Source: a virus (Duplodnaviria > Heunggongvirae > Uroviricota > Caudoviricetes). Taken from it: a stretch of 30,075 bases of DNA. A program made the translations under genes and the position numbers. Of this stretch, positions 4,450 through 20,043 are shown piece after piece. The DNA is taken from the IMG/VR virus record IMGVR_UViG_2563366969_000005; one strand, given 5' to 3'. How positions within the stretch are numbered: the stretch's first letter is position 1; each line of letters opens with the position of its first letter. Under the pieces are notes generated by a model. The model saw only the letters and a list, made by a program, of their open reading frames with translations, searched no databases and had not been told where the DNA came from.

Positions 4450-6672
4450 TTGGCTGTTCAATTCGCTTATCCGTGGAACGTCCCACGGTCGGCAATCTCC
4501 AGCCCATACCTTACTTATGAGCAACAGCAAAGCCGCGACCGTATGTTCGCGGCTTTGCTGCATGCAAAAAAGGTGCTTTCTCTCCAGCCCGACTGCGTGC
4601 GGTTAGATGTTTATCGCACTGCTGCGGTGCTGGAACAAAATCAGGGTAGTCAACGAGCCAATGCATTTTTAATCAGCTTCTGCAAAAAGGCATTGCCGCG
4701 TCTTGAACTGGTCGCAAAAAAATACGAATGCGCTGGTATCAACAGCAAGGTATCAACCGCTGTTTTTGGAAGTCATTTTGATACTCAGCAAATGCAATAT
4801 CTGTCGTCACGCATGGTTAATATGGTCGCCCGATATAACCGTCTCCCGGACATGTCGCGCGCTGATGTTGACCTGTTGGCCGCTGATATTGCTAATTTCA
4901 TTCGTGGTGAACTTGCCAACATTAATGACCACGGATTCGGCGAGCTTAAAACGCTGTACACCTGGTATATTCGTGCTGGCTTTATTTCCCTCCAATTCAA
5001 CGTTATCCCACCACATTGGGAGCGGGTTGAAAAAAAATATGTCGGTGCGGATGAAATCGCACCGGCTATCGCCAAAATGTTTAACGATGGGTGGTGGCGC
5101 GGTCTTTTGCGCCGTGTAGCAGCTACGTGGCGCGAACACCTGCAAATTGCAGTCGGCAACGTCAGTAAGAAAAAAAACACTTACGCGAGTAAAAACTGCG
5201 TGACTGACTGGCGTGAACAAAAGCGCCGCACTCGTGAATTTCTCAAAGGTCTGGATCTCGAAGACGAAGACGGCAACCGTATCAGCCTAATTGAAAAATA
5301 TGATGGCTCAGTTGCTAACCCTGCGATTCGCCGCTGTGAGCTCATGACCCGCATTCGTGGGTTTGAAAACATCTGTAATGAGCTCGGTTATGTCGGTGAG
5401 TTTTACACTCTAACCGCGCCGTCAAAATATCACGCCACGACTAAAGCCGGTTACCGTAACAGCAAATGGAGCGGTGCCAGCCCGGCTGACACGCAAAACT
5501 ATCTAACCGGTATCTGGGCGCGTATCCGTGCCAAACTACATCGGGAAGATGTCCGTATTTTCGGTATTCGTGTCGCCGAGCCCCATCACGACGGCACTCC
5601 ACACTGGCACATGCTGATGTTCATGCTGCCGGAAGATGTTGAATATGTTCGCTCCATCGTCCGTAAATACGCATGGAAAGAAGACCGCCACGAACTGAAA
5701 AGCGATAAATCCCAAAAAGCACGTTTCCACGCGGAGTCCATTGACCCGGAGAAAGGCAGCGCAACCGGCTATGTTGCTAAATACATTTCAAAAAATATCG
5801 ACGGTTATGCTCTCGATGGTGAAACCGATGATGAAAGCGGTGAGCTGCTGAAAGAGACAGCCCCCGCCGTTTCAGCATGGGCTGCGCGCTGGCACATCCG
5901 TCAGTTTCAGTTTATTGGTGGTGCGCCGGTGACGGTTTACCGTGAGTTGCGTCGCCTCGCTGATACCGAAACCGCGCACGGTCTGAGCGTTGAGTTTGCC
6001 GCCGTCCATGATGCCGCCGACGCTGGTGACTGGGCTGGTTATGTTAATGCTCAGGGTGGGCCGTTTGTCCGTCGCGATGATTTACAGGTGCGCACACTGT
6101 ATGAACCGCGTACCGAGCTTAATCAGTACGGTGAGGAAACGGTATGTATTAAGGGGGTCTACGATTCCTCCATAGGTGCAGGAAGCCCGATTTTAACCCG
6201 GCTCACTCAGTGGAAGATTGTTCCGAAGCGTGCTGTTGATTTGGCCGTTGACCTTCAGGACGGCAAAGCCGTCCCTCGGAGTTCTGTCAATAACTGTACG
6301 GGAAGCGAAAGCGATCCACCGATACTGGATTTAACAAAACCACTGAGTCGGCGTGAAAGACGAGAATTGACCAACCGACTCAGGAAGCAAAAGCCAGCAG
6401 TACGGCGAAAATTCATCCACGGAACGGATGAGCAAAACGCAGCTATAGCTAAAACTATCGATGAGATACATCTGACAACCGGCATTAATATCAGCCGGGG
6501 CGAAGCCCTGCACCTGATGGCCGGTGGTAAAAGTTGTTTTGATGGTAAATGGCTACGCGGAACGGCCAAAGGAGAAATATTTTCCGCAGCACCATCGCAT
6601 GAGGCTAAAGCTCGGAAAATCCTTAATCGTGTTGCGGCGATGGCTGAAGCATCAAAACCAATACATGAGTAA
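4450..6672 (+). CDS. A: Replication initiation endonuclease gpA (rolling-circle Rep, P2 A-like)
   Basis: 740-aa ORF with an HUH-type motif (PHWHMLMF) and a downstream catalytic tyrosine context (GYVAKYISKN). The start is a TTG at 4450 after a G-run; an in-frame ATG at 4543 is an alternative. Confidence 0.9.
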   Translation: MAVQFAYPWNVPRSAISSPYLTYEQQQSRDRMFAALLHAKKVLSLQPDCVRLDVYRTAAVLEQNQGSQRANAFLISFCKKALPRLELVAKKYECAGINSKVSTAVFGSHFDTQQMQYLSSRMVNMVARYNRLPDMSRADVDLLAADIANFIRGELANINDHGFGELKTLYTWYIRAGFISLQFNVIPPHWERVEKKYVGADEIAPAIAKMFNDGWWRGLLRRVAATWREHLQIAVGNVSKKKNTYASKNCVTDWREQKRRTREFLKGLDLEDEDGNRISLIEKYDGSVANPAIRRCELMTRIRGFENICNELGYVGEFYTLTAPSKYHATTKAGYRNSKWSGASPADTQNYLTGIWARIRAKLHREDVRIFGIRVAEPHHDGTPHWHMLMFMLPEDVEYVRSIVRKYAWKEDRHELKSDKSQKARFHAESIDPEKGSATGYVAKYISKNIDGYALDGETDDESGELLKETAPAVSAWAARWHIRQFQFIGGAPVTVYRELRRLADTETAHGLSVEFAAVHDAADAGDWAGYVNAQGGPFVRRDDLQVRTLYEPRTELNQYGEETVCIKGVYDSSIGAGSPILTRLTQWKIVPKRAVDLAVDLQDGKAVPRSSVNNCTGSESDPPILDLTKPLSRRERRELTNRLRKQKPAVRRKFIHGTDEQNAAIAKTIDEIHLTTGINISRGEALHLMAGGKSCFDGKWLRGTAKGEIFSAAPSHEAKARKILNRVAAMAEASKPIHE

Positions 6673-6746
6673 TTCATATCCATATCATGCACATACAGCA
6701 ATCGCTCTATTCGTATTTTTTCTTCCCATCTTTTGCTAATACGTGC

Positions 6747-6766
6747 TACTGTATAAATATACAGTA
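6747..6766 (+). promoter_or_regulatory. LexA operator (SOS box) overlapping the promoter of the downstream operon
   Basis: tactgtataaatatacagta contains a perfect CTGT-N8-ACAG core (CTGTATAAATATACAG, 6749-6764), palindromic and AT-rich in the centre. A TTGCTA -35-like hexamer lies at 6733-6738. The operon ATG is 20 bp downstream. Confidence 0.8.
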
Positions 6767-6785
6767 ACCCTTTGGGAGGGATTTC

Positions 6786-6968
6786 ATGGTTGGCGAACAT
6801 TTCAGCCGAACGCAGCAAAAGTGGGCTTGTGTGCAATTTATTGCCGAGGTATCTCTGATTACAAACTGCAAGCCATCAGACTTAAAGCTCGCGCTCACTC
6901 TCATTGCAGACCTAGCAAACAGCGAAAATAACGAAACCGAAGATGATAATTTTTATAAGGCTGATTAG
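6786..6968 (+). CDS. Small SOS-operon protein, possible Tum-like antirepressor N-terminal part
   Basis: 60-aa ORF with GGGAGGG upstream, directly after the LexA box. Ends at a TAG that is in frame with the DinI-like gene 3 bp downstream. Confidence 0.5.
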   Translation: MVGEHFSRTQQKWACVQFIAEVSLITNCKPSDLKLALTLIADLANSENNETEDDNFYKAD

Positions 6969-6971
6969 ATT

Positions 6972-7205
6972 ATGAGAATCAATATCACGCTGGATAAAGA
7001 GCAAAAAATTAGTCAGGCAACATTGGATGCACTTGAGGCTGAACTGTACCGCAATCTTCAACCTATTTACCCAAAGACTGCTATCCGAATTCGCAAGGGC
7101 TCCGCTAATGGCGTTGAACTAAGCGGTTTGAAACTGGACGAAGATAAAAAACGAGTAATGGAAATCATGCAGCAGGTATGGGAGGACGATAGCTGGCTGC
7201 ATTAA
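6972..7205 (+). CDS. DinI-like protein (DinI / 186 Tum C-terminal domain family)
   Basis: 77 aa. MRINITLDKEQKISQATLDALEAELYRNLQPIYP...MEIMQQVWEDDSWL aligns by eye with E. coli DinI (MRIEVTIAK...ALAGEL...ISEILQETWE). LexA-box control fits an SOS-induced function. Confidence 0.85.
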   Translation: MRINITLDKEQKISQATLDALEAELYRNLQPIYPKTAIRIRKGSANGVELSGLKLDEDKKRVMEIMQQVWEDDSWLH

Positions 7206-7207
7206 CA

Positions 7208-7276
7208 AACGCCGCCGGTGCTGAAACTTGCTTTCAGTGCTGGCGGGGTTGAACAACTCGCACCGCGAGGCGCTAG
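7208..7276 (+). repeat. Copy 1 of a duplicated ~69-bp element containing a hairpin (7215-7243)
   Basis: aacgccgccggtgctgaaacttgctttcagtgctggcggggttgaacaactcgcaccgcgaggcgctag, immediately after the DinI-like stop. Closely matches the copy at 7613-7681. Confidence 0.7.
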
Positions 7277-7400
7277 TTCTTCCTCTCAAAGTTTCTCGAT
7301 GTTTTATTGGTTACACACCAGTGATGAATGGGACGTTACCTTAGCGGGTTTTATAGTGGCGCTGTGGCAGCACTAAATAAAATTCATTGAGGGCGATAAT

Positions 7401-7610
7401 ATGCATCGACTACCGGGCGAAATTCCGCAGCACAAAACTAAAAGCATCAAACTGATGGCCATCGTTCATCGTCTGCAGCAGATAATGGTCAATGAGAATT
7501 TGACACCCGCCGAGCTGGTCGGGTGTGCCGAAATAGTCAGGGATAATTACGGCACGCTGGATAGCATCAGCAAGCCGACATATTACTCACCGCCACCACG
7601 TCGACCATAG
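7401..7610 (+). CDS. Hypothetical small protein in the SOS operon
   Basis: 69-aa ORF with GAGGG 7 nt upstream of the ATG. Followed directly by repeat copy 2. Confidence 0.5.
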   Translation: MHRLPGEIPQHKTKSIKLMAIVHRLQQIMVNENLTPAELVGCAEIVRDNYGTLDSISKPTYYSPPPRRP

Positions 7611-7612
7611 AT

Positions 7613-7681
7613 AACGCCGCCGGAGCTGAAACTCGATTTCAGGTCTGGCGGGGTTGAACAACGAGCTACGCGAGGCGTTAG
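7613..7681 (+). repeat. Copy 2 of the duplicated ~69-bp hairpin-containing element
   Basis: aacgccgccggagctgaaactcgatttcaggtctggcggggttgaacaacgagctacgcgaggcgttag, immediately after the stop at 7610. Roughly 85 percent identical to copy 1 by eye. Confidence 0.7.
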
Positions 7682-7743
7682 CCGGTCATAGCGTCGCAAA
7701 TACTTCAACCGTCTGCTGGTTAAATAATTCGAGGTTTTTGGAC

Positions 7744-7938
7744 ATGCAAAATCCCCTTTCATCGAAAAATGACCCGTTTGCCGATTGGGCAAAGAATCTG
7801 ACTTTAATGGCTTTAAATAACGATCTGAGCTCTCGCGAGGTGGAAAGCTACACCGCAAAAATGGTCGAGCAGGCCGGTAAAGATGAGCTATCAGTCGTTA
7901 TCAAACACCTGTTAAATCACATCAGAATGCGCAAATAA
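7744..7938 (+). CDS. Hypothetical small protein in the SOS operon
   Basis: ATG 7744 with GAGG 9 nt upstream. The ORF-track version starts at a TTG (7654) inside repeat copy 2 and is judged too long. Confidence 0.45.
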   Translation: MQNPLSSKNDPFADWAKNLTLMALNNDLSSREVESYTAKMVEQAGKDELSVVIKHLLNHIRMRK

Positions 7939-7954
7939 GAGGAACTATATAAAT

Positions 7955-8056
7955 ATGTTATCTCTCGTTTATGAAAATCCGTGGACGACGATTTTTCTGA
8001 TGATTGTCGCCAGCATGTGCCTCAACAGTGTTATTGGCGCATTGCGCGGCCATTAA
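7955..8056 (+). CDS. Possible 33-aa hydrophobic peptide (MLSLVYENPWTTIFLMIVASMCLNSVIGALRGH)
   Basis: Short ORF below the ORF-track cutoff, translated by hand. AAGAGG lies about 12 nt upstream. It ends about 20 bp before a strong intrinsic terminator and has one predicted TM-like segment. Could be fortuitous. Confidence 0.25.
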   Translation: MLSLVYENPWTTIFLMIVASMCLNSVIGALRGH

Positions 8057-8076
8057 TCGCGACAAAACCAGACTAA

Positions 8077-8105
8077 AACCGGCACCCTGAATGCCGGTTT
8101 TTTTA
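8077..8105 (+). terminator. Rho-independent terminator ending the early/SOS transcription unit
   Basis: Stem aaccggca (8077-8084) / tgccggtt (8092-8099) with loop ccctgaa, followed by a run of T (through about 8104). Confidence 0.7.
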
Positions 8106-8264
8106 TGCCATTTTTCCGCGAACTTCCCGTTTTTTAGTCGTGCATGCATCAGGTGCATGGTTTTGCATGCGTCAGTCTTGCCCGTTCTGTCCGTGCGCCG
8201 CCAGAGCTAGCGCGGATCCAGAGTTGTCATGCAACTGCATTAAAACCGACCCATAAAGCGGGCA

Positions 8265-8283
8265 GGCGTGGCGGGGAAAGCAT
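8265..8283 (+). other. cos: cos site (19-nt cohesive-end sequence, 186-type)
   Basis: GGCGTGGCGGGGAAAGCAT. As I recall it this is the 186 cohesive end; P2 is GGCGAGGCGGGGAAAGCAC. It lies between the replication/SOS region and the portal gene, as expected in an integrated P2-family genome. Confidence 0.65.
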
Positions 8284-8502
8284 TGCGCGCCAGCAGTGAT
8301 GCGTAATAATAAAAATTATCCTCTGAGCGCGTCGTGATGGCGCTGTCGTGGTCGCTGCTGGTTCGTTGGTGGTCGGGTGTGTTCGTGCGCGTGAGACGCA
8401 TCTGATGCGTGATGGTGGTGTGCATGGAAAAGCCACCAGGAGCAGCGGCTTTACAGGAGTGGCAGGATTCAAACTGCTAATTATGTTTCTACTATGATTA
8501 AA

Positions 8503-9507
8503 CTAATTTACATGTATGTAGAGTTCACCGTCGCCAGACCAATCGGGACACTCTAAAACAAGCCCAAACTGCTTGAATATTTCATCAATGATTATTGTTA
8601 TCTCCCGAAAATCACCAAAACCTGTAATGTGCTGGTCATTAAACTTCCCATAAAGATTCTGAAAAGCAATGCCTAATTCTGATAATTGATATCTTATATT
8701 TGAGTTGGATAGTGTAAGGGATAGCTTTGGATCGTATTCTTTAATATTGATGTTTAGAGAATGGACATAACCCATCGCATAAGCATAAGAGTTGATGATT
8801 AGCCTGATACGTTTTTTTACTTCGAGATACATGTCATTCAGAGAAATATTACCGTACTTATAACCCCAGATGAGTTTTTCAATCTCGTCAGATACTTCAT
8901 TTACAACAGTGTCAAGATTCTCTAAAAATAAATCGATAGTTTCTTGAGGGGCAGACCCCGAAGACATGTAATTAGCGAGATATTCAGACCATGCACGCGT
9001 GGCTGAGATAAGAAGCGCGCTACCATACTCGTTGACTGTAAAGTTTTGGGCTAAGCATGTTAGTAAGTTTTTTTCATGTACGTGCACTAATTCATGGTGA
9101 ATGCGATGGATGACTGCGAGGTATCCTTCTTCTTTCAGTTTTAAGAAGCTACCATCATTGAAAAGCTCAACAAAAAAATCAATCGATAGCACAAGGGTAT
9201 ATTCTTCACATAGCCCATCATTGCCAATTTTTGTTACTAACTGCCCGACGGCTGCGCCCTGTTTGCTATTGGTAAATGAACTAGGGGATTTGTGTTGGTA
9301 AGAGGATGTTACCTTTTGAAGAGCTTCACTGAAGTTATAGGAAACAATCACGCATTTTAATTTGGAGATATCAAGATTGAGATTTTTTGTTAAAGCTCGG
9401 ATAGCTTCTAGTGTGAAATTACCGATATTATTTGCTTCTTGCTCAGTAGCGAAACCTTCGAGGGTTATTTTAAAATCAGTTTCCAAAATATTAATCTCCG
9501 CGCCCAT
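8503..9507 (-). CDS. AT-rich cargo protein of unknown function with His-rich HExxH motif; candidate anti-phage defence or exclusion gene
   Basis: 334-aa ORF, conspicuously AT-rich against a GC-rich backbone. Contains IHRIHHELVHVHEKN (HELVH is an HExxH pattern in a His cluster). Lies between cos and the portal gene, downstream of Q on the same strand. Weak Shine-Dalgarno. No family recognised. Confidence 0.8.
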   Translation of the reverse strand: MGAEINILETDFKITLEGFATEQEANNIGNFTLEAIRALTKNLNLDISKLKCVIVSYNFSEALQKVTSSYQHKSPSSFTNSKQGAAVGQLVTKIGNDGLCEEYTLVLSIDFFVELFNDGSFLKLKEEGYLAVIHRIHHELVHVHEKNLLTCLAQNFTVNEYGSALLISATRAWSEYLANYMSSGSAPQETIDLFLENLDTVVNEVSDEIEKLIWGYKYGNISLNDMYLEVKKRIRLIINSYAYAMGYVHSLNINIKEYDPKLSLTLSNSNIRYQLSELGIAFQNLYGKFNDQHITGFGDFREITIIIDEIFKQFGLVLECPDWSGDGELYIHVN

Positions 9508-9525
9508 TGTTTTGATATTCGATGC

Positions 9526-9554
9526 ACTATAGCTTTCGCAGATTGCATCTTCAA
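9526..9554 (-). promoter_or_regulatory. Putative sigma70 promoter for the cargo gene at 8503-9507
   Basis: On the minus strand: TTGAAG (-35, plus coordinates 9549-9554), a 17-nt spacer, then TATAGT (-10, plus coordinates 9526-9531), about 20 nt upstream of the ATG at 9507. Lies in the 77-bp gap after the Q stop. Confidence 0.45.
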
Positions 9555-9584
9555 TAATGAGCGCAGAGATTGTGGCGGCCTAAG

Positions 9585-17465: not shown

Positions 17466-17895
17466 CGCCGTGCCGCAGCTCCGAAATAATCCCGATATGC
17501 TGCGCCTTTTTGCCGACAACGGCCATACCGATTCCCGACTGGCGAGCTCGCTGTCGTTTGAAAAGGTGTACGTGCTTAACGTGGTGGTGACCGGCTTCAC
17601 CGGTGACCTTGATTTGATATTCGTGCCGGTGCAGGCGTGGCTGCGTGAACATCAGCCGGACATTATGACCACCGACGACGGGCGGGAAAAAGGATTCACC
17701 TGGATTATTGATATCAATAACGACGATTCGCTCGATATCAGTATCAGCCTGAGGCTCACCGAGCGCACGCTCGTCAAAGAGGTCGACGGCGCGCTGCACG
17801 TCAGCTATGCCCCTGAGCAGCCACTGCCTGAGCCGGTGACGCGCCCGGTCGAGCTGTACGTTAACGGCGAACTGGTGAGTAAGTGGGATGAGTGA
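17419..17895 (+). CDS. R: Tail completion protein (P2 gpR-like)
   Basis: 158 aa. ...NPDMLRLFADNGHTD...SLSFEKVYVLNVVVTGFTGDLDLIFVPVQAWLREHQPDIMTT... resembles P2 gpR. Confidence 0.85.
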   Translation: MNSMQKHKSLRKALINAVPQLRNNPDMLRLFADNGHTDSRLASSLSFEKVYVLNVVVTGFTGDLDLIFVPVQAWLREHQPDIMTTDDGREKGFTWIIDINNDDSLDISISLRLTERTLVKEVDGALHVSYAPEQPLPEPVTRPVELYVNGELVSKWDE

Positions 17896-18343
17896 ATTAA
17901 CCGCGCTGCAGGAACGCCTTGCCGGTCTGATTGCCAGCCTGTCACCGGCGGCACGTCGGCAAATGGCGGTTGAGGTTGCGAAAAAGCTGCGTACCAGTCA
18001 GCAACAGCGTATCAAGCGCCAGCAGGCACCCGACGGCACCCCGTATGCGGCACGAAAGCGCCAGCCGGTGCGGAGCAAGAAAGGTCGGATTAAACGTGAA
18101 ATGTTCGCCAAACTGCGCACCAGTCGCTTTATGAAAGCCAAAGGCAGCGACAGTGCGGCGGTGGTGGAGTTTACCGGCAAGGTGCAGCGCATGGCGCGGG
18201 TGCATCAGTACGGCCTAAAAGACCGGCCAAACCGCAACAGCCGGGATGTGCAGTACGAGGCGCGACCGTTGCTCGGATACTCTTCATCAGACTTACAAAA
18301 AGTTGAGAGTTTAATTATGGATGCTTTATGTCAACGCCATTGA
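17888..18343 (+). CDS. S: Tail completion / virion morphogenesis protein (P2 gpS-like)
   Basis: 151 aa, MSELTALQERLAGLIASLSPAARRQ... as in P2 gpS. The last ~20 codons switch abruptly to AT-rich codons. Confidence 0.85.
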   Translation: MSELTALQERLAGLIASLSPAARRQMAVEVAKKLRTSQQQRIKRQQAPDGTPYAARKRQPVRSKKGRIKREMFAKLRTSRFMKAKGSDSAAVVEFTGKVQRMARVHQYGLKDRPNRNSRDVQYEARPLLGYSSSDLQKVESLIMDALCQRH

Positions 18344-18380
18344 CTTTGGATTCGCTGAGAATTATTATATAACTCAGCGA

Positions 18381-18442
18381 TAGAGGTGGACTGGTGTCTA
18401 GGTGGGCGTGCCCACTGAGTTGGGTTCGATTCCCTAACCTCG
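18381..18442 (+). other. tRNA-like fragment (T-arm/T-loop GGTTCGATTCC with partial acceptor 3' strand); not an intact tRNA
   Basis: GGTTCGATTCC (18423-18433) is the canonical T-loop consensus, flanked by an imperfect T-stem (TTGGG/CCCTA) and preceded by a short hairpin (GTGGG-CGTG-CCCAC). There is not enough sequence for D and anticodon arms. It overlaps the stop codon of the minus-strand cargo gene. Confidence 0.35.
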
Positions 18443-19270
18443 TATTATTCCTCTCGATATTTTTATTGCTGGGTTTTCCTTTCTTATTTCATTTTTAATT
18501 TGCTCATCACAAATTAAATAATCTATGTTTTTTGCTTTAACAAGTTCTTTAACGCTAATGTTAATTGAATTTAATAGATTTGCATTCCGCATGTTAGCCC
18601 CTTCATAAGTAACGGATTTAAAATCACATCCTTTTAATATGCAGCTTTTCATTTCGCCATCTGTAAAATACCCCCCTTCAAAACTGCAGTTTTCGAAAGT
18701 GACATTTTGAAAACATGTATTAAATGCCTTAATATTTCTTAGCTTGCAGTTTTTGAATTTAACACTCTTAACTCTATTGCCTGTAATATTTAGAGCTTGA
18801 ATTGTGCAATTATCGAAAGAACAATCTCTAATGTATGATTCGCTCATATTCAAGCCGGTTAAGTCAGCGTCTTTAAAATGTAAATATTTGATAGTGGACA
18901 TTTTATCAAGTTCAATCCTTGGAACTTGAATGTTATATATTCCTTTAGCATTTAACTGACGTATGATTTTTATCTTCATAATATTCAGTTCTGCAGAAGA
19001 ATGCTTTGCCAGATTTTCAAGATCTTCAATTAGTTCGTGAATAGCATCTTTATTTTGCCTTTTATTTTCAAAATAGTAAAGAATCACACCCAAAACAAGA
19101 AAGTCTAAAATTGAAGAATTTGCATTAACAAGAAAATTCTCCATGAATTTTGAGTTGTAGTTATCATTATAAACAGACAACCCTACTATAAGCCCGGAGT
19201 ATAAAAAAAAGATACCTATAATATATTTCATATTGCTTATTGTACGCCTAAAAGATGAAGTTCTTTTCAT
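18434..19270 (-). CDS. AT-rich membrane-anchored pentapeptide-repeat protein (cargo gene between S and V)
   Basis: Start chosen at MKRTSSF... (ATG at 19270, GGCAGGTAG upstream); the ORF-track start is 19315. Two hydrophobic helices (YIIGIFFLYSGLIVGLSVY, ILDFLVLGVILYYF) are followed by repeats of the pentapeptide type (ADLTGLNMSES, CSFDNCTIQALNITGNRVKSVKFKNCKLRNIKAFNTCFQNVTFENCSFEG...). Very AT-rich compared with its neighbours. Confidence 0.8.
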   Translation of the reverse strand: MKRTSSFRRTISNMKYIIGIFFLYSGLIVGLSVYNDNYNSKFMENFLVNANSSILDFLVLGVILYYFENKRQNKDAIHELIEDLENLAKHSSAELNIMKIKIIRQLNAKGIYNIQVPRIELDKMSTIKYLHFKDADLTGLNMSESYIRDCSFDNCTIQALNITGNRVKSVKFKNCKLRNIKAFNTCFQNVTFENCSFEGGYFTDGEMKSCILKGCDFKSVTYEGANMRNANLLNSINISVKELVKAKNIDYLICDEQIKNEIRKENPAIKISRGIIRG

Positions 19271-19407
19271 TACTACCTGCCATATGTTTTGTGTGATTTT
19301 CGAATGAGTCAACACTCAAATGATACATGAATGCACACCGAATTGTGTAGAAGAGCATACAGCTGAATCGTTTTGCTCTTGGCTTTAACAATCGGCATTC
19401 TTTTTTC

Positions 19408-20043
19408 ATGAACACATTAAACACCATTCAAGAGTTAGCACGTGCCATTCGCAACCTCATCCGCTCAGGCGTGGTGACTGAGGTCGATACTGTGCAGGGG
19501 CTGTGCCGCGTACAAAGCGGCGGGATCCAGACTACATGGCTGAACTGGCTGACCACCCGCGCCGGTCGTTCGCGGACGTGGTGGGCTCCCTCGGTCGGTG
19601 AGCAGGTTCTGCTGCTGGCAATCGGTGGCGAGCTTGATACCGCTTTCGTGCTGCCGGGTATTTTCTCCGACGATAACCCCGCCCCGTCTGCCTCGGCGGA
19701 TGCGTGGCATGTGGCTTTCCCTGATGGTGCGGTCATTGAGTACGAGCCCGAAACCGGCGCGCTGACGGTCAGCGGCATAAAAACGGCCGACGTGACGGCA
19801 TCGGAGTCCATCACCGCAACCGTACCGCTGGTACTGGTGAAAGCCTCGACCAGTATCACCCTCGACACCCCGGAGGTGATTTGCACCAATAAGCTAACGA
19901 CGGCGACGCTTGAGGTGCAGAAAGGCGGCAAGATGAGCGGCAATATCGAACATACCGGCGGGTCACTGTCGTCTAATGGCAAGGTACTCCACACCCATAA
20001 ACACCCGGGCGACAGCGGCGGGCAAACGGGGGCACCGTTATGA
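19408..20043 (+). CDS. V: Baseplate spike / assembly protein (P2 gpV-like)
   Basis: 211 aa. MNTLNTIQELARAIRNLIRSG...HTHKHPGDSGGQTGAPL matches P2 gpV including the C-terminal HTHKHPGDSGG motif. Confidence 0.92.
   Translation: MNTLNTIQELARAIRNLIRSGVVTEVDTVQGLCRVQSGGIQTTWLNWLTTRAGRSRTWWAPSVGEQVLLLAIGGELDTAFVLPGIFSDDNPAPSASADAWHVAFPDGAVIEYEPETGALTVSGIKTADVTASESITATVPLVLVKASTSITLDTPEVICTNKLTTATLEVQKGGKMSGNIEHTGGSLSSNGKVLHTHKHPGDSGGQTGAPL

Follow-up and report, generated by a model that had tools for sequence, protein, structure and literature searches.

An AT-rich segment that separates two tail genes of a 186/P2-type prophage raises the question of what it encodes, how it came to lie there and what it may do for its carrier. 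In the 30,075-nucleotide stretch of viral DNA analyzed here, in the following called the window, the insert between genes S and V comprises 1,064 bp with a GC content of 30%, where empty relatives have 68-71 bp. A preliminary description of this DNA had reported an AT-rich insert of approximately 1.06 kb with one minus-strand gene, and this part is confirmed, but a second gene, which encodes a tRNA-like RNA and overlaps the first, had been overlooked. The features discussed below are listed in Table 1, where PRP denotes the pentapeptide-repeat protein.

Table 1 Features of the S-V junction in the window.
Feature	Position	Strand	Basis
Tail completion gene S (186 gene O homologue)	17888..18343	+	Pfam Phage_tail_S, E 3.7e-36, residues 3-147
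Predicted sigma-70-type promoter of the tRNA-like RNA, TTGACT-17 nt-TATTAT	18340..18368	+	10/12 consensus matches, best in region
tRNA-like small RNA gene	18379..18445	+	Covariance models, compensatory changes; T arm GGGUUCGAUUCCC
PRP gene, 278 aa, membrane-anchored	18434..19270	-	Pfam, PHROG, TM and charge analyses
Candidate PRP promoter, TACACA-18 nt-TATCAT	19320..19349	-	9/12 consensus matches, by count no better than chance
TGT-N12-ACA dyad upstream of V	19344..19361	+	Read from sequence; back-to-back with the PRP promoter
Baseplate spike gene V	19408..20043	+	Pfam Phage_base_V, Phage_spike, Apex

Boundaries and origin of the cassette

Alignment of the S region to 186 and I4 places the break in homology at 18276/18277, inside S, where the junction had been proposed to lie. 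The accompanying idea that the insertion had rewritten the C-terminus of S did not hold, since the gene is intact and a homologous allele has been swapped in that travels together with the cassette. Codons ~131-151 (18277-18343) derive from the cassette donor, and the S C-terminal alleles of cassette-bearing phages are similar to one another. Judged from these alignments, recombination between P2-like phages replaced the C-terminus of S with this allele. On the right, the boundary of recombination is diffuse (~19394-19450), because the first ~15 codons of V are diverged and AT-richer when aligned to 186 and I4.

The PRP gene is the only ORF between S and V, and neither the repeat scan nor the ORF list of the window revealed terminal repeats, a transposase or an integrase at the flanks of the cassette. 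The comparisons show that the cassette is a mobile two-gene cargo module of a 186/P2-type prophage, which was brought in by homologous recombination in the flanking genes S and V. This supports the earlier suggestion of a moron, meaning a horizontally acquired, AT-rich and independently transcribed cargo gene, here for a membrane-tethered pentapeptide-repeat protein.

The S-V junction as a cargo site

Among 76 related viral contigs the S-V junction is empty in 57, occupied by this PRP gene in 4 and by other AT-rich genes in 15. The 19 occupied sites hold no fewer than 10 kinds of cargo, whose GC fractions are 0.30-0.41, and some of the alternative cargos match candidate defence families in PADLOC. 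With 14 carriers among 5,426 complete E. coli genomes in addition to the 4 contigs, the PRP gene is far from being a universal constituent of these phages, which would have spoken against acquired cargo. The junction shows the traits by which morons and P2-family cargo hotspots are recognized, namely insertion between core genes that lie side by side in relatives, content that varies, a deviating composition and candidate promoters.

The known cargo hotspots of the P2 family are old/tin between A and Q, and Z/fun between G and FI. Like these, the S-V site carries AT-rich and variable single-gene cargo between conserved core genes, with alternatives that include defence candidates; it differs from them in being the boundary of two late operons. 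It is not named in Rousset 2022 (no mention of gpS, gpV or "tail genes"), Vassallo 2022 or Egorov 2024, and may fall under the hotspot described as "downstream of GpL / within the tail genes" (PMC13586616). The site had been put forward as a non-classical one, which stands as far as naming in these papers is concerned, but with 19 of 76 junctions occupied it is a recurrent cargo site and no one-off. This makes the S-V junction of 186/P2-type phages a further place to search for single-gene defence candidates, of which about one fifth are unannotated cargo.

A membrane-anchored pentapeptide-repeat protein

Two transmembrane helices at the N-terminus of PRP (TM1, residues ~15-34; TM2, ~42-66) are followed by a helical linker (67-108), a beta-helix (118-240) and a C-terminal helix (256-265). 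The pentapeptide repeats and the two membrane helices, both read from the translation in the preliminary description, were borne out: PF13599 scores 59.4 bits (cut-off 38), PF00805 scores 38.3 bits (cut-off 20.2), and two N-terminal TM helices are predicted. The repeat domain has the character of a right-handed quadrilateral beta-helix of ~6 coils, with a net charge of +4 and a pI of 8.7; the corresponding values of all 29 family members range from +1 to +6 and from 7.8 to 9.4. TM2 displays a conserved polar stripe, N49/S52/S53/D56, that includes an invariant acidic residue. The prediction for PRP is a protein of the inner membrane, with a cytoplasm-facing basic beta-helix mounted on a two-helix hairpin.

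PRP matches PHROG 12514 (unknown function) with E 2e-141, and its RefSeq name is "pentapeptide repeat-containing protein". The Pfam search revealed no RNase domain, and PADLOC returned no significant match; its RTasSLATT model matched residues 6-69 weakly (E 0.0027, 15.5 bits), and no Pfam SLATT family appeared at E<=1. A scan of representative genomes matched only Paenibacillus and one generic cyanobacterial repeat protein, and scans of viral contigs with the distant family members P0038 and P0040 gave no matches.

The first reading of the repeats had drawn an analogy to Qnr and MfpA. In such a scheme the repeat helix would imitate DNA and sequester a DNA-binding enzyme at the membrane, either as an anti-defence factor or for protection of topoisomerase. 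Qnr, MfpA and AlbG are the best structural matches of PRP, and a role in anti-defence against Sucellos has been reported as likely for a pentapeptide protein of a phage (bioRxiv 10.1101/2024.07.02.601686). The analogy nevertheless turned out to be weak, as the NCBIfam models for Qnr and MfpA both give 27.5 bits against cut-offs of 240 and 360, respectively, and the PRP helix is the shorter one. The pentapeptide-fold DNA mimics, such as MfpA and Qnr, are acidic. Qnr, MfpA, AlbG and McbG are soluble, acidic DNA mimics that form dimers, whereas PRP is membrane-anchored and its repeat domain is net positive in 29 of 29 family members. Due to this basic repeat domain, DNA mimicry of the Qnr type is very unlikely, and it would leave the RNA partner described below unexplained.

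A tRNA-like RNA gene converging on the PRP gene

The second gene of the cassette specifies an RNA whose acceptor-like stem has 5 bp and whose short D-like arm has an invariant UGG loop; a variable hairpin takes the place of the anticodon arm, and a T arm follows. At its 3' end the gene runs over the final 12 nt of the oppositely oriented PRP ORF. Covariance models of the RNA score 95.5 and 85.9 bits, with one match per locus. In the alignment fitted to the model, 92.6% of the cells are paired compared to 43-56% when the partners are slid, in 8 pairs both partners change, and the covariation score of 0.342 (0.186 in shuffles) was reached in 0 of 500 shuffles. The two strands of the acceptor stem both occur and covary (GAGGU/ACCUC, GAGGC/GCUUC with G-U, AAGC/GCUU), and there are six or more different hairpin stems, each of which pairs. 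Owing to G-U pairs, the fold of the plus strand is the more stable one in 13 of 13 sequences.

Folding of single sequences was not significantly better than that of shuffles (z -0.4 to -2.4), and the minimum-energy fold of the Psychrobacter copies is not a cloverleaf. RNAalifold on the raw MAFFT alignment recovered the acceptor stem only, because hairpins of unequal length were misaligned, and the model-based alignment was used instead. For searching viral contigs, the loose DNA pattern TGGTGTC...GGTTCGATTCC was unspecific (>120 matches, mostly unrelated), and a tighter pattern worked.

With tRNA (RF00005) the RNA shares the cloverleaf layout, the canonical T-loop UUCGAUU (UUCAAUU in the L245 locus) and the invariant GG in the D-like loop. 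It differs in its acceptor stem of 5 bp instead of 7 bp, in that CCA is not encoded, and in the absence of an anticodon loop, whose 7 nt are replaced by a freely variable hairpin loop of 3-9 nt. A bona fide tRNA or known RNA family at this position was rejected, as ARAGORN and Rfam (E<=10) were negative for the window as well as for the enterobacterial loci.

The -35 element of the predicted RNA promoter shares bases with the S stop codon TGA (18341-18343). Across 13 diverse cassettes, one of which lies in a non-P2 context, TTGAC does not vary, and A2 and T6 of the -10 are nearly invariant; equivalent promoters are legible by eye in the Psychrobacter, Paenibacillus and L245 loci. Given where the promoter lies and how far the conserved structure extends, the RNA would be roughly 70 nt long and transcribed separately.

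That island borders often carry 3' fragments of tRNAs (PMC8022706, P22 attP; bioRxiv 10.64898/2026.05.13.724894) could suggest that the element is a functionless relic of a tRNA-targeted integration site, or else a terminator, and that PRP acts alone; the negative tRNA calls would agree with this. A relic would not be expected to keep both acceptor strands covarying and all of its different hairpin stems paired, its promoter boxes would hardly be conserved, and the cassette is without the flanking integrase or terminal repeats of such a site. We regard this explanation as most improbable.

Linkage of RNA and protein across lineages

In the phage, plasmid and chromosomal loci surveyed, the tRNA-like RNA gene is a constant companion of the PRP family. 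It recurs beside members of 31-35% identity, on Psychrobacter plasmids and in a Yersinia-type P2-like prophage, and in the enterobacterial and Psychrobacter loci it is convergent with, and overlaps, the 3' end of the PRP ORF. This co-occurrence suggests an undescribed protein-RNA module, which probably serves phage defence or addiction. The Paenibacillus homologues of PRP have a degenerate tRNA-like gene directly upstream, not antisense to the PRP gene, and these elements, at 43 and 48 bits, lie above the threshold of the Rfam tRNA model and have aberrant anticodon loops that differ between the two. Against the enterobacterial RNA model they reach 12.5 bits (E 0.47), which does not demonstrate homology, and their adjacency could merely reflect an island inserted beside a tRNA.

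Does the RNA then simply regulate the PRP gene? A membrane protein with a cytoplasmic domain, carried as prophage cargo with its own candidate promoter, would suit superinfection exclusion, where the sub-membrane repeat domain blocks the entry of DNA or an ejected phage protein without death of the cell, and the convergent, overlapping RNA gene of enterobacteria and Psychrobacter would only tune expression through convergent transcription or antisense pairing. Several observations make this rather unlikely. The PRP family is also found on small plasmids and at non-prophage chromosomal sites, the Paenibacillus RNA is not antisense, a conserved cloverleaf with covarying stems exceeds the needs of an antisense regulator, and the invariant acidic residue and polar stripe in TM2 suggest more than a passive anchor.

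The strict linkage of the two genes, with no other gene partner of PRP, also invites an explanation as selfish addiction devoid of an anti-phage role, in which an unstable tRNA-like RNA would neutralize a stable membrane toxin and loss of the prophage or plasmid would kill the cell. On mobilizable plasmids of 9-11 kb the PRP gene is among the few annotated genes apart from rep and mob, which is in line with addiction. The PRP gene also sits in a phage cargo site common to candidate defence genes, and in Salmonella Infantis there are split or truncated PRP copies, which a strict addiction module would resist. We hold pure addiction to be improbable, while noting its large overlap with the explanation preferred below, because many TA modules also abort phage infection.

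Comparison with known systems and a possible mechanism

Type III TA and Abi systems (ToxIN, AbiF-like) resemble the cassette in having a protein gene tightly linked to a structured small RNA with its own promoter, borne by phages or plasmids. Their known antitoxins are tandem repeats processed by the toxin, whereas the RNA here is a single-copy cloverleaf and the repeat scan of the window showed no tandem RNA array; and their known toxins are soluble endoribonucleases in contrast to a membrane pentapeptide-repeat protein.

In Hailong, an oligo-dA signal reportedly keeps the pentapeptide-containing HalA channel closed. Membership of PRP in the HalA family (PDB 9nyi) was rejected, since NF051894 gives 44.1 bits against a cut-off of 250 and matches the repeats only (residues 120-228). 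The likeness is confined to the generic repeat fold, for which Qnr and MfpA score higher structurally, and the order of domains is reversed: in PRP the two TM helices (15-66) precede the repeats (118-240), while HalA has its repeats at ~82-156 of 371 residues. HalA carries an IRK-type channel domain (PMC13586616), and no IRK or potassium-channel domain was found in PRP by Pfam. A neighbouring HalB nucleotidyltransferase is absent from the cassette and from all loci examined, and the nucleic acid of Hailong is enzymatically made oligo-dA as opposed to a genome-encoded tRNA-like RNA.

The explanation we prefer, with a rough probability of 0.4, is that PRP is a latent membrane effector regulated in trans by the tRNA-like RNA, together forming a TA-like or abortive-infection module. 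The effector would be membrane-damaging or ion-conducting, and the RNA would most likely be an inhibitory ligand of the repeat domain, comparable to oligo-dA on HalA or to the RNA antitoxins on type III toxins. When a phage infects or the element is lost, the RNA would disappear or be changed, the effector would be set free, and the infected cell would be stopped to the benefit of the lysogen population.

A more specific version of the latent-effector explanation, which is doubtful but somewhat better placed than exclusion or pure addiction, takes the pair as an undescribed class of RNA-gated membrane effector, in which an RNA encoded in the genome would play the part that DNA has in the Hailong guard. 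Binding of the basic repeat "crown" to the RNA, at its elbow and acceptor region, would hold shut a pore or ion-conducting path, with the invariant Asp and the Asn/Ser stripe of TM2 as its lining. Phage activities that cut, modify or sequester tRNA-like molecules, or halt their synthesis, would then cause opening, and such modules would have been spread by phages and plasmids over Gammaproteobacteria and possibly Firmicutes. If the pairing is functional, it would represent a new protein-nucleic-acid "guard" architecture with a membrane effector under the control of a tRNA-shaped RNA, as well as a new bacterial RNA family overlooked by standard tRNA and Rfam scans. Because the module is ~1 kb in size, consists of two parts and comes in natural variants whose stems are fully compensated, E. 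coli would allow direct tests of toxicity, of its rescue by the RNA and of phage protection.

Regulatory sites between the PRP gene and V

By eye, the arrangement TACACA...TATCAT/TATAAT of the candidate PRP promoter is also seen in the Klebsiella, Edwardsiella, Salmonella and Enterobacter cassettes. The dyad upstream of V, which we take to resemble the Ogr/B activator site of P2-family late promoters, was likewise recognized by eye in 4 of 5 other cassette clades.

Architecture and origin of the cassette

The AT-rich cassette between the tail genes S and V is a mobile module of two genes, encoding a membrane-tethered protein with a basic repeat domain and a tRNA-like RNA with its own promoter, and it is located in a cargo site common to candidate defence genes. 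The window is a 186-like prophage of E. coli (P2-family, Peduoviridae). Phage vB_EcoM-613R3 matches its first 25 kb at 97.9% identity over 92% of the length, the 186-like phages Midge and SEN1 match the same part at approximately 90%, and the gene order at the cassette (lysis genes, R, S, V, W, J, I, H) is the same in 186. S and V are separated by 1,064 bp, compared with 69 bp in 186 and 68 bp in an E. coli prophage whose site is empty, and in between the GC content drops from 0.57-0.62 to 0.29-0.34 and then returns. The coordinates are collected in the table.

Features of the cassette, of the window and of the comparison loci
Feature	Position	Strand	Remark
A-Q (old/tin) island	~6700-9580		between replication gene A and portal gene
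334-aa ORF in A-Q island	8503-9507	-	
S	17888-18343	+	tail gene
GC trough	~18300 to ~19400		
RNA promoter	TTGACT 18340-18345, 17 nt, TATTAT 18363-18368	+	best promoter-like site in region
8-bp inverted repeat	18353-18381	+	TCGCTGAG...CTCAGCGA, just past S stop
tRNA-like RNA	18379-18445	+	overlaps 3' end of PRP ORF
PRP gene	18434-19270	-	ATG start after AGGT, 278 aa
Alternative PRP start	19315	-	GTG
Three direct repeats in PRP gene	18685-18831		60-nt spacing
V	19408-20043	+	tail gene
Other S-V cargos (contigs L154, L186, L196, L197, L201, L202, L208, L219-L221, L223, L226-L228)	S-V gaps		
tRNA-like gene, hairpin, terminator, Paenibacillus L018	7797-7950		
tRNA-like gene, hairpin, terminator, Paenibacillus L020	3683-3860		
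Lone RNA-pattern match, metagenome L240	4808-4860		
Tandem duplication, cassette L028	~4825-4860		GGGAATCGAGGTTAGGGAATCGAGGTTAGGGAATCGAACC
IS009 match, prophage L012	695-860		
IS009 match, prophage L013	1518-1716		
IS009 match, prophage L015	667-841	-	

On the left side, about 97% identity with 186 extends as far as 18276 and no further, which places the junction within S, as the preliminary description had it. The further claim that the S C-terminus was rewritten is not borne out, as the 22 replaced codons specify an ordinary S tail. It is matched by the Phage_tail_S profile through residue 147 of 151, and its sequence, YSSSDLQKVESLIMDALCQRH, is closer to the S tails of cassette-bearing phages (FNSSDLQEIEIIIIDILGRNH, FHSSDLQKIEKLIINTLNQSY) than to that of 186 (FTRDDEQMIEDVIISHLGK). 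On the right side, V is AT-richer and diverged over its first ~15 codons. The cassette was thus acquired from another P2-like phage by homologous recombination through S and V, and not by an insertion that damaged S. No transposase, integrase or terminal repeats were found at the cassette. The inverted repeat surrounding the -10 box of the RNA promoter is confined to this cassette clade, other clades having a different sequence there; it could be a remnant of the S-operon terminator or a regulator of the RNA promoter.

The S-V junction as a cargo site

The exact cassette is present in 14 of 5,426 complete E. coli genomes and in one deposited phage. We fetched 80 viral contigs encoding S relatives, 76 of which had V too, and surveyed their S-V junctions: 57 were empty (68-71 bp), four contained a PRP gene and 15 contained other inserts (816-1,778 bp, GC 0.34-0.41, both orientations). 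Such a mixture of empty and occupied junctions with varied inserts shows that the S-V junction is a genuine variable cargo site. The cassette qualifies as a phage moron within a cargo hotspot, and the suggestion that it is a moron is supported. The other cargos encode UPF0489, FRG, DUF2971, DUF4062, a trypsin-like protease, an M48-like peptidase, 8xMP and multi-TM proteins, together with one pair of an amidase and a lipoprotein. Three have a match among the candidate defence families of PADLOC (FRG, PDC-S15; DUF2971, PDC-S31; trypsin-like, PDC-S45).

The classical literature describes A-Q (old/tin) and G-FI (Z/fun) as the P2 cargo sites, and a text search of Rousset 2022 gave no match to gpS, gpV or "tail genes". 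A 2026 survey (PMC13586616) gives, for P2, a hotspot "downstream of GpL ... within the tail genes" with 16% of systems, which may include the S-V junction. The window has a second AT-rich island (GC 0.38-0.39) in the A-Q region, where the 334-aa ORF, without a PADLOC match, is presumably cargo of the classical hotspot.

The pentapeptide-repeat protein

The sole long ORF in the GC trough encodes a bona fide pentapeptide-repeat protein (PRP). The 278-aa form is the one annotated in the GenBank entry of 613R3, under the name "YjcF", and the RefSeq product name is "pentapeptide repeat-containing protein". PF13599 (E 3.7e-16) and PF00805 (E 1e-9) both exceed the Pfam cut-off. An AlphaFold2 model (29 homologues, mean pLDDT 85.7) has helices at residues 15-34, 42-87 and 93-108, a beta-helix at 118-240 and a short C-terminal helix, and hydropathy maxima at residues ~25 and ~55 mark two membrane helices. 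Every observed element of the AT-rich two-TM pentapeptide-repeat gene initially proposed here is thus real, in GC content, ORF, Pfam, model and hydropathy. The inter-helix loop is not basic, unlike the N-terminus (MKRTSSFRRTISNMK) and the segment that follows TM2 (ENKRQNKD), so by the positive-inside rule the repeat domain should be cytoplasmic. Each of the direct repeats, spaced 60 nt apart within the gene, equals one 20-residue coil of the beta-helix, so the coils are still recognisably related in the DNA.

A search of 5.8 billion proteins gave a close family of 28 clusters with 52-99% identity, all from Enterobacterales, and one Paenibacillus protein at 26% identity as the sole further match. 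In Klebsiella, Salmonella, Yersinia, Enterobacter and Edwardsiella the gene is found at the S-V site, antisense to the late genes and with a GC content of 0.27-0.33, while a 339-aa variant in another prophage type has umuDC on one side and an SRAP-family gene on the other. With the N-terminal 117 residues as query, phmmer found 40 relatives among 1.8 billion representatives, from hosts including Citrobacter, Serratia, Yersinia, Salmonella, Klebsiella and Acinetobacter; pentapeptide repeats are present in 37 of these 41 sequences (window protein included), which shows that the architecture of two TM helices and repeats is fixed. In TM2, residues N49, N51, S52, S53 and D56 are almost invariant, and D56 remains nearly so throughout the diverse set of 41. 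Such a polar stripe with a conserved acidic residue, lying in a membrane helix, suggests a path for ions or a contact essential to an oligomer rather than a passive anchor. In a distant cluster from Salmonella Infantis and Klebsiella quasipneumoniae (P0038) several members are truncated or split, with 201-aa and 93-aa pieces in one genome, which suggests pseudogenisation in some lineages.

The PHROGs entry for the family, phrog_12514, is listed with unknown function, and PADLOC has no model for it. Qnr and MfpA proteins are acidic. The repeat domain of PRP has a net charge of +1 to +6 and a pI of 7.8-9.4 in all 29 members, so the idea of a DNA mimic of the Qnr/MfpA type finds no support, and DNA mimicry or anti-defence is very improbable; the charges computed for QnrB1 and MfpA as a comparison are approximate. 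Membership of Qnr/MfpA was rejected on both score and charge.

A tRNA-like RNA with its own promoter

Directly 3' of the PRP ORF the plus strand contains GGGTTCGATTCCC, a canonical T-arm, at which ARAGORN and Rfam detected nothing. The C-termini of PRP homologues translate this element in different frames (..GIEPNSVG.. in some, ..RESNPTQ in others), so the DNA is conserved independently of its coding. An alignment of 13 cassettes shows an invariant TTGAC(T/A), 17 nt, a -10 box with A2 and T6 nearly invariant, and then a conserved element of ~67 nt. The -35 box overlaps the S stop codon, and as a PRP gene in a non-P2 prophage context keeps the same promoter and RNA element, these are part of the cassette and not of S.

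The element folds as a cloverleaf. Its acceptor-like stem is GAGGU/ACCUC, GAGGC/GCUUC with one G-U, or GAAG/CUUC; UGG is invariant in the D-like arm (GAC-UGGU-GUC); the hairpin occurs with six or more unrelated stem sequences, every one paired; and a T arm completes the fold. In an alignment fitted to the RNA model, which favours the structure, 92.6% of the cells are paired compared with 43-56% when the partners are slid, both sides have changed at 8 pairs, and the covariation score is 0.342 against 0.186 for shuffled alignments (0 of 500 shuffles reach 0.342). The plus strand folds better than the opposite strand in 13 of 13 cassettes (mean -21.1 versus -16.3 kcal/mol), and since its G-U pairs become A-C mismatches on the opposite strand, we read the element as a structured RNA in the late-gene direction; single-sequence z-scores are modest (-0.4 to -2.4). 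As a real tRNA it was rejected, failing the tRNA membership tests. In one cassette the 3' acceptor/T-arm segment shows a short duplication in tandem.

Linkage of the RNA and the protein

The covariance model matches all 15 enterobacterial PRP loci and has no match in empty sites, in other S-V cargo loci or in the remainder of the window; the RNA is absent from all fifteen contigs with other cargo. The sequence pattern for the RNA has eight matches among 2.9 million viral contigs, and these eight are the very contigs with the PRP gene; in the metagenome collection four of five records adjoin one. That the element is a functionless tRNA relic is highly improbable in our judgement. The fifth record lacks both an adjacent pentapeptide gene and the complementary acceptor strand and is probably either a chance match or an unrelated sequence that looks tRNA-like.

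The linkage extends to distant relatives. Two small mobilizable Psychrobacter plasmids encode a PRP relative (31-32% identity) with a model match on the other strand just past its stop, at 16.9 bits (E 0.026) in one plasmid and 18.2 bits (E 0.012) in the second, and a readable upstream promoter (TTGTAA, 16 nt, TAT(G/C)CT). A Yersinia-type P2-like prophage has a 35% identical relative, also between V and S, a TTGACA box overlapping the S stop, and an RNA whose four changed stems are all paired (AAGC/GCUU; UUGA/UCAA; CUGA-GAGA-UCAG; GAGGG-UUCAAUU-CCCUC). In two Paenibacillus species a tRNA-like gene lies 130-160 nt upstream of the 26% homologue on the same strand; these genes exceed the Rfam tRNA threshold and have aberrant, mutually different anticodon loops ("Ile-tat", "Ser-tga") and weak acceptor stems, and comparison by the covariance model does not establish their homology to the enterobacterial RNA. 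Downstream of each lie first an 18-20 bp hairpin that is the exact complement of the 3' half of the RNA (its own T-stem and 3' acceptor strand) and then an intrinsic terminator, an arrangement that looks like an alternative-structure switch. We found no paper pairing pentapeptide-repeat proteins with tRNA-like RNAs. The observation in the preliminary description is confirmed. The partner RNA, the most interesting feature, lay just outside it.

A possible RNA-restrained effector

The two genes converge and overlap in Gammaproteobacteria but stand in tandem in Paenibacillus. As their arrangement is not constant, a conserved RNA-protein interaction in trans is more likely than antisense. A reading in which PRP provides non-lethal superinfection exclusion and the RNA regulates its expression we consider unlikely.

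The nearest mechanistic precedent for PRP and its RNA is Hailong, and type III toxin-antitoxin systems are the other. Bound DNA reportedly holds the channel of the Hailong effector HalA closed until phage exonucleases release HalA. Once activated, HalA, an ion channel of the membrane, depolarises the cell (review PMC13276650), and its structure has been determined with oligodeoxyadenylate bound (PDB 9nyi). On the strength of these precedents we propose, with a probability of roughly 0.4, that a latent membrane effector is held inactive by the tRNA-like RNA and would be freed by infection or when the element is lost. A pure addiction module is about as doubtful as the exclusion reading. We rate the cassette as a mobile protein-nucleic-acid module of the toxin/guard type; that PRP and the RNA represent a new class of RNA-gated membrane effector is a minority reading, though one with a real chance.

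Membership of the known systems was rejected in both cases, for HalA on score, HalB partner and domain order (HalA is the top NCBIfam match, in the repeats only and with 44 bits where the cut-off is 250), and for type III systems as there is neither a repeat array nor an RNase. Rfam also gave IS009 matches below threshold (36-45 bits, gathering score 117) in three related prophages, within the region of the tail-fibre assembly gene; these matches probably reflect coding-sequence conservation rather than RNA.
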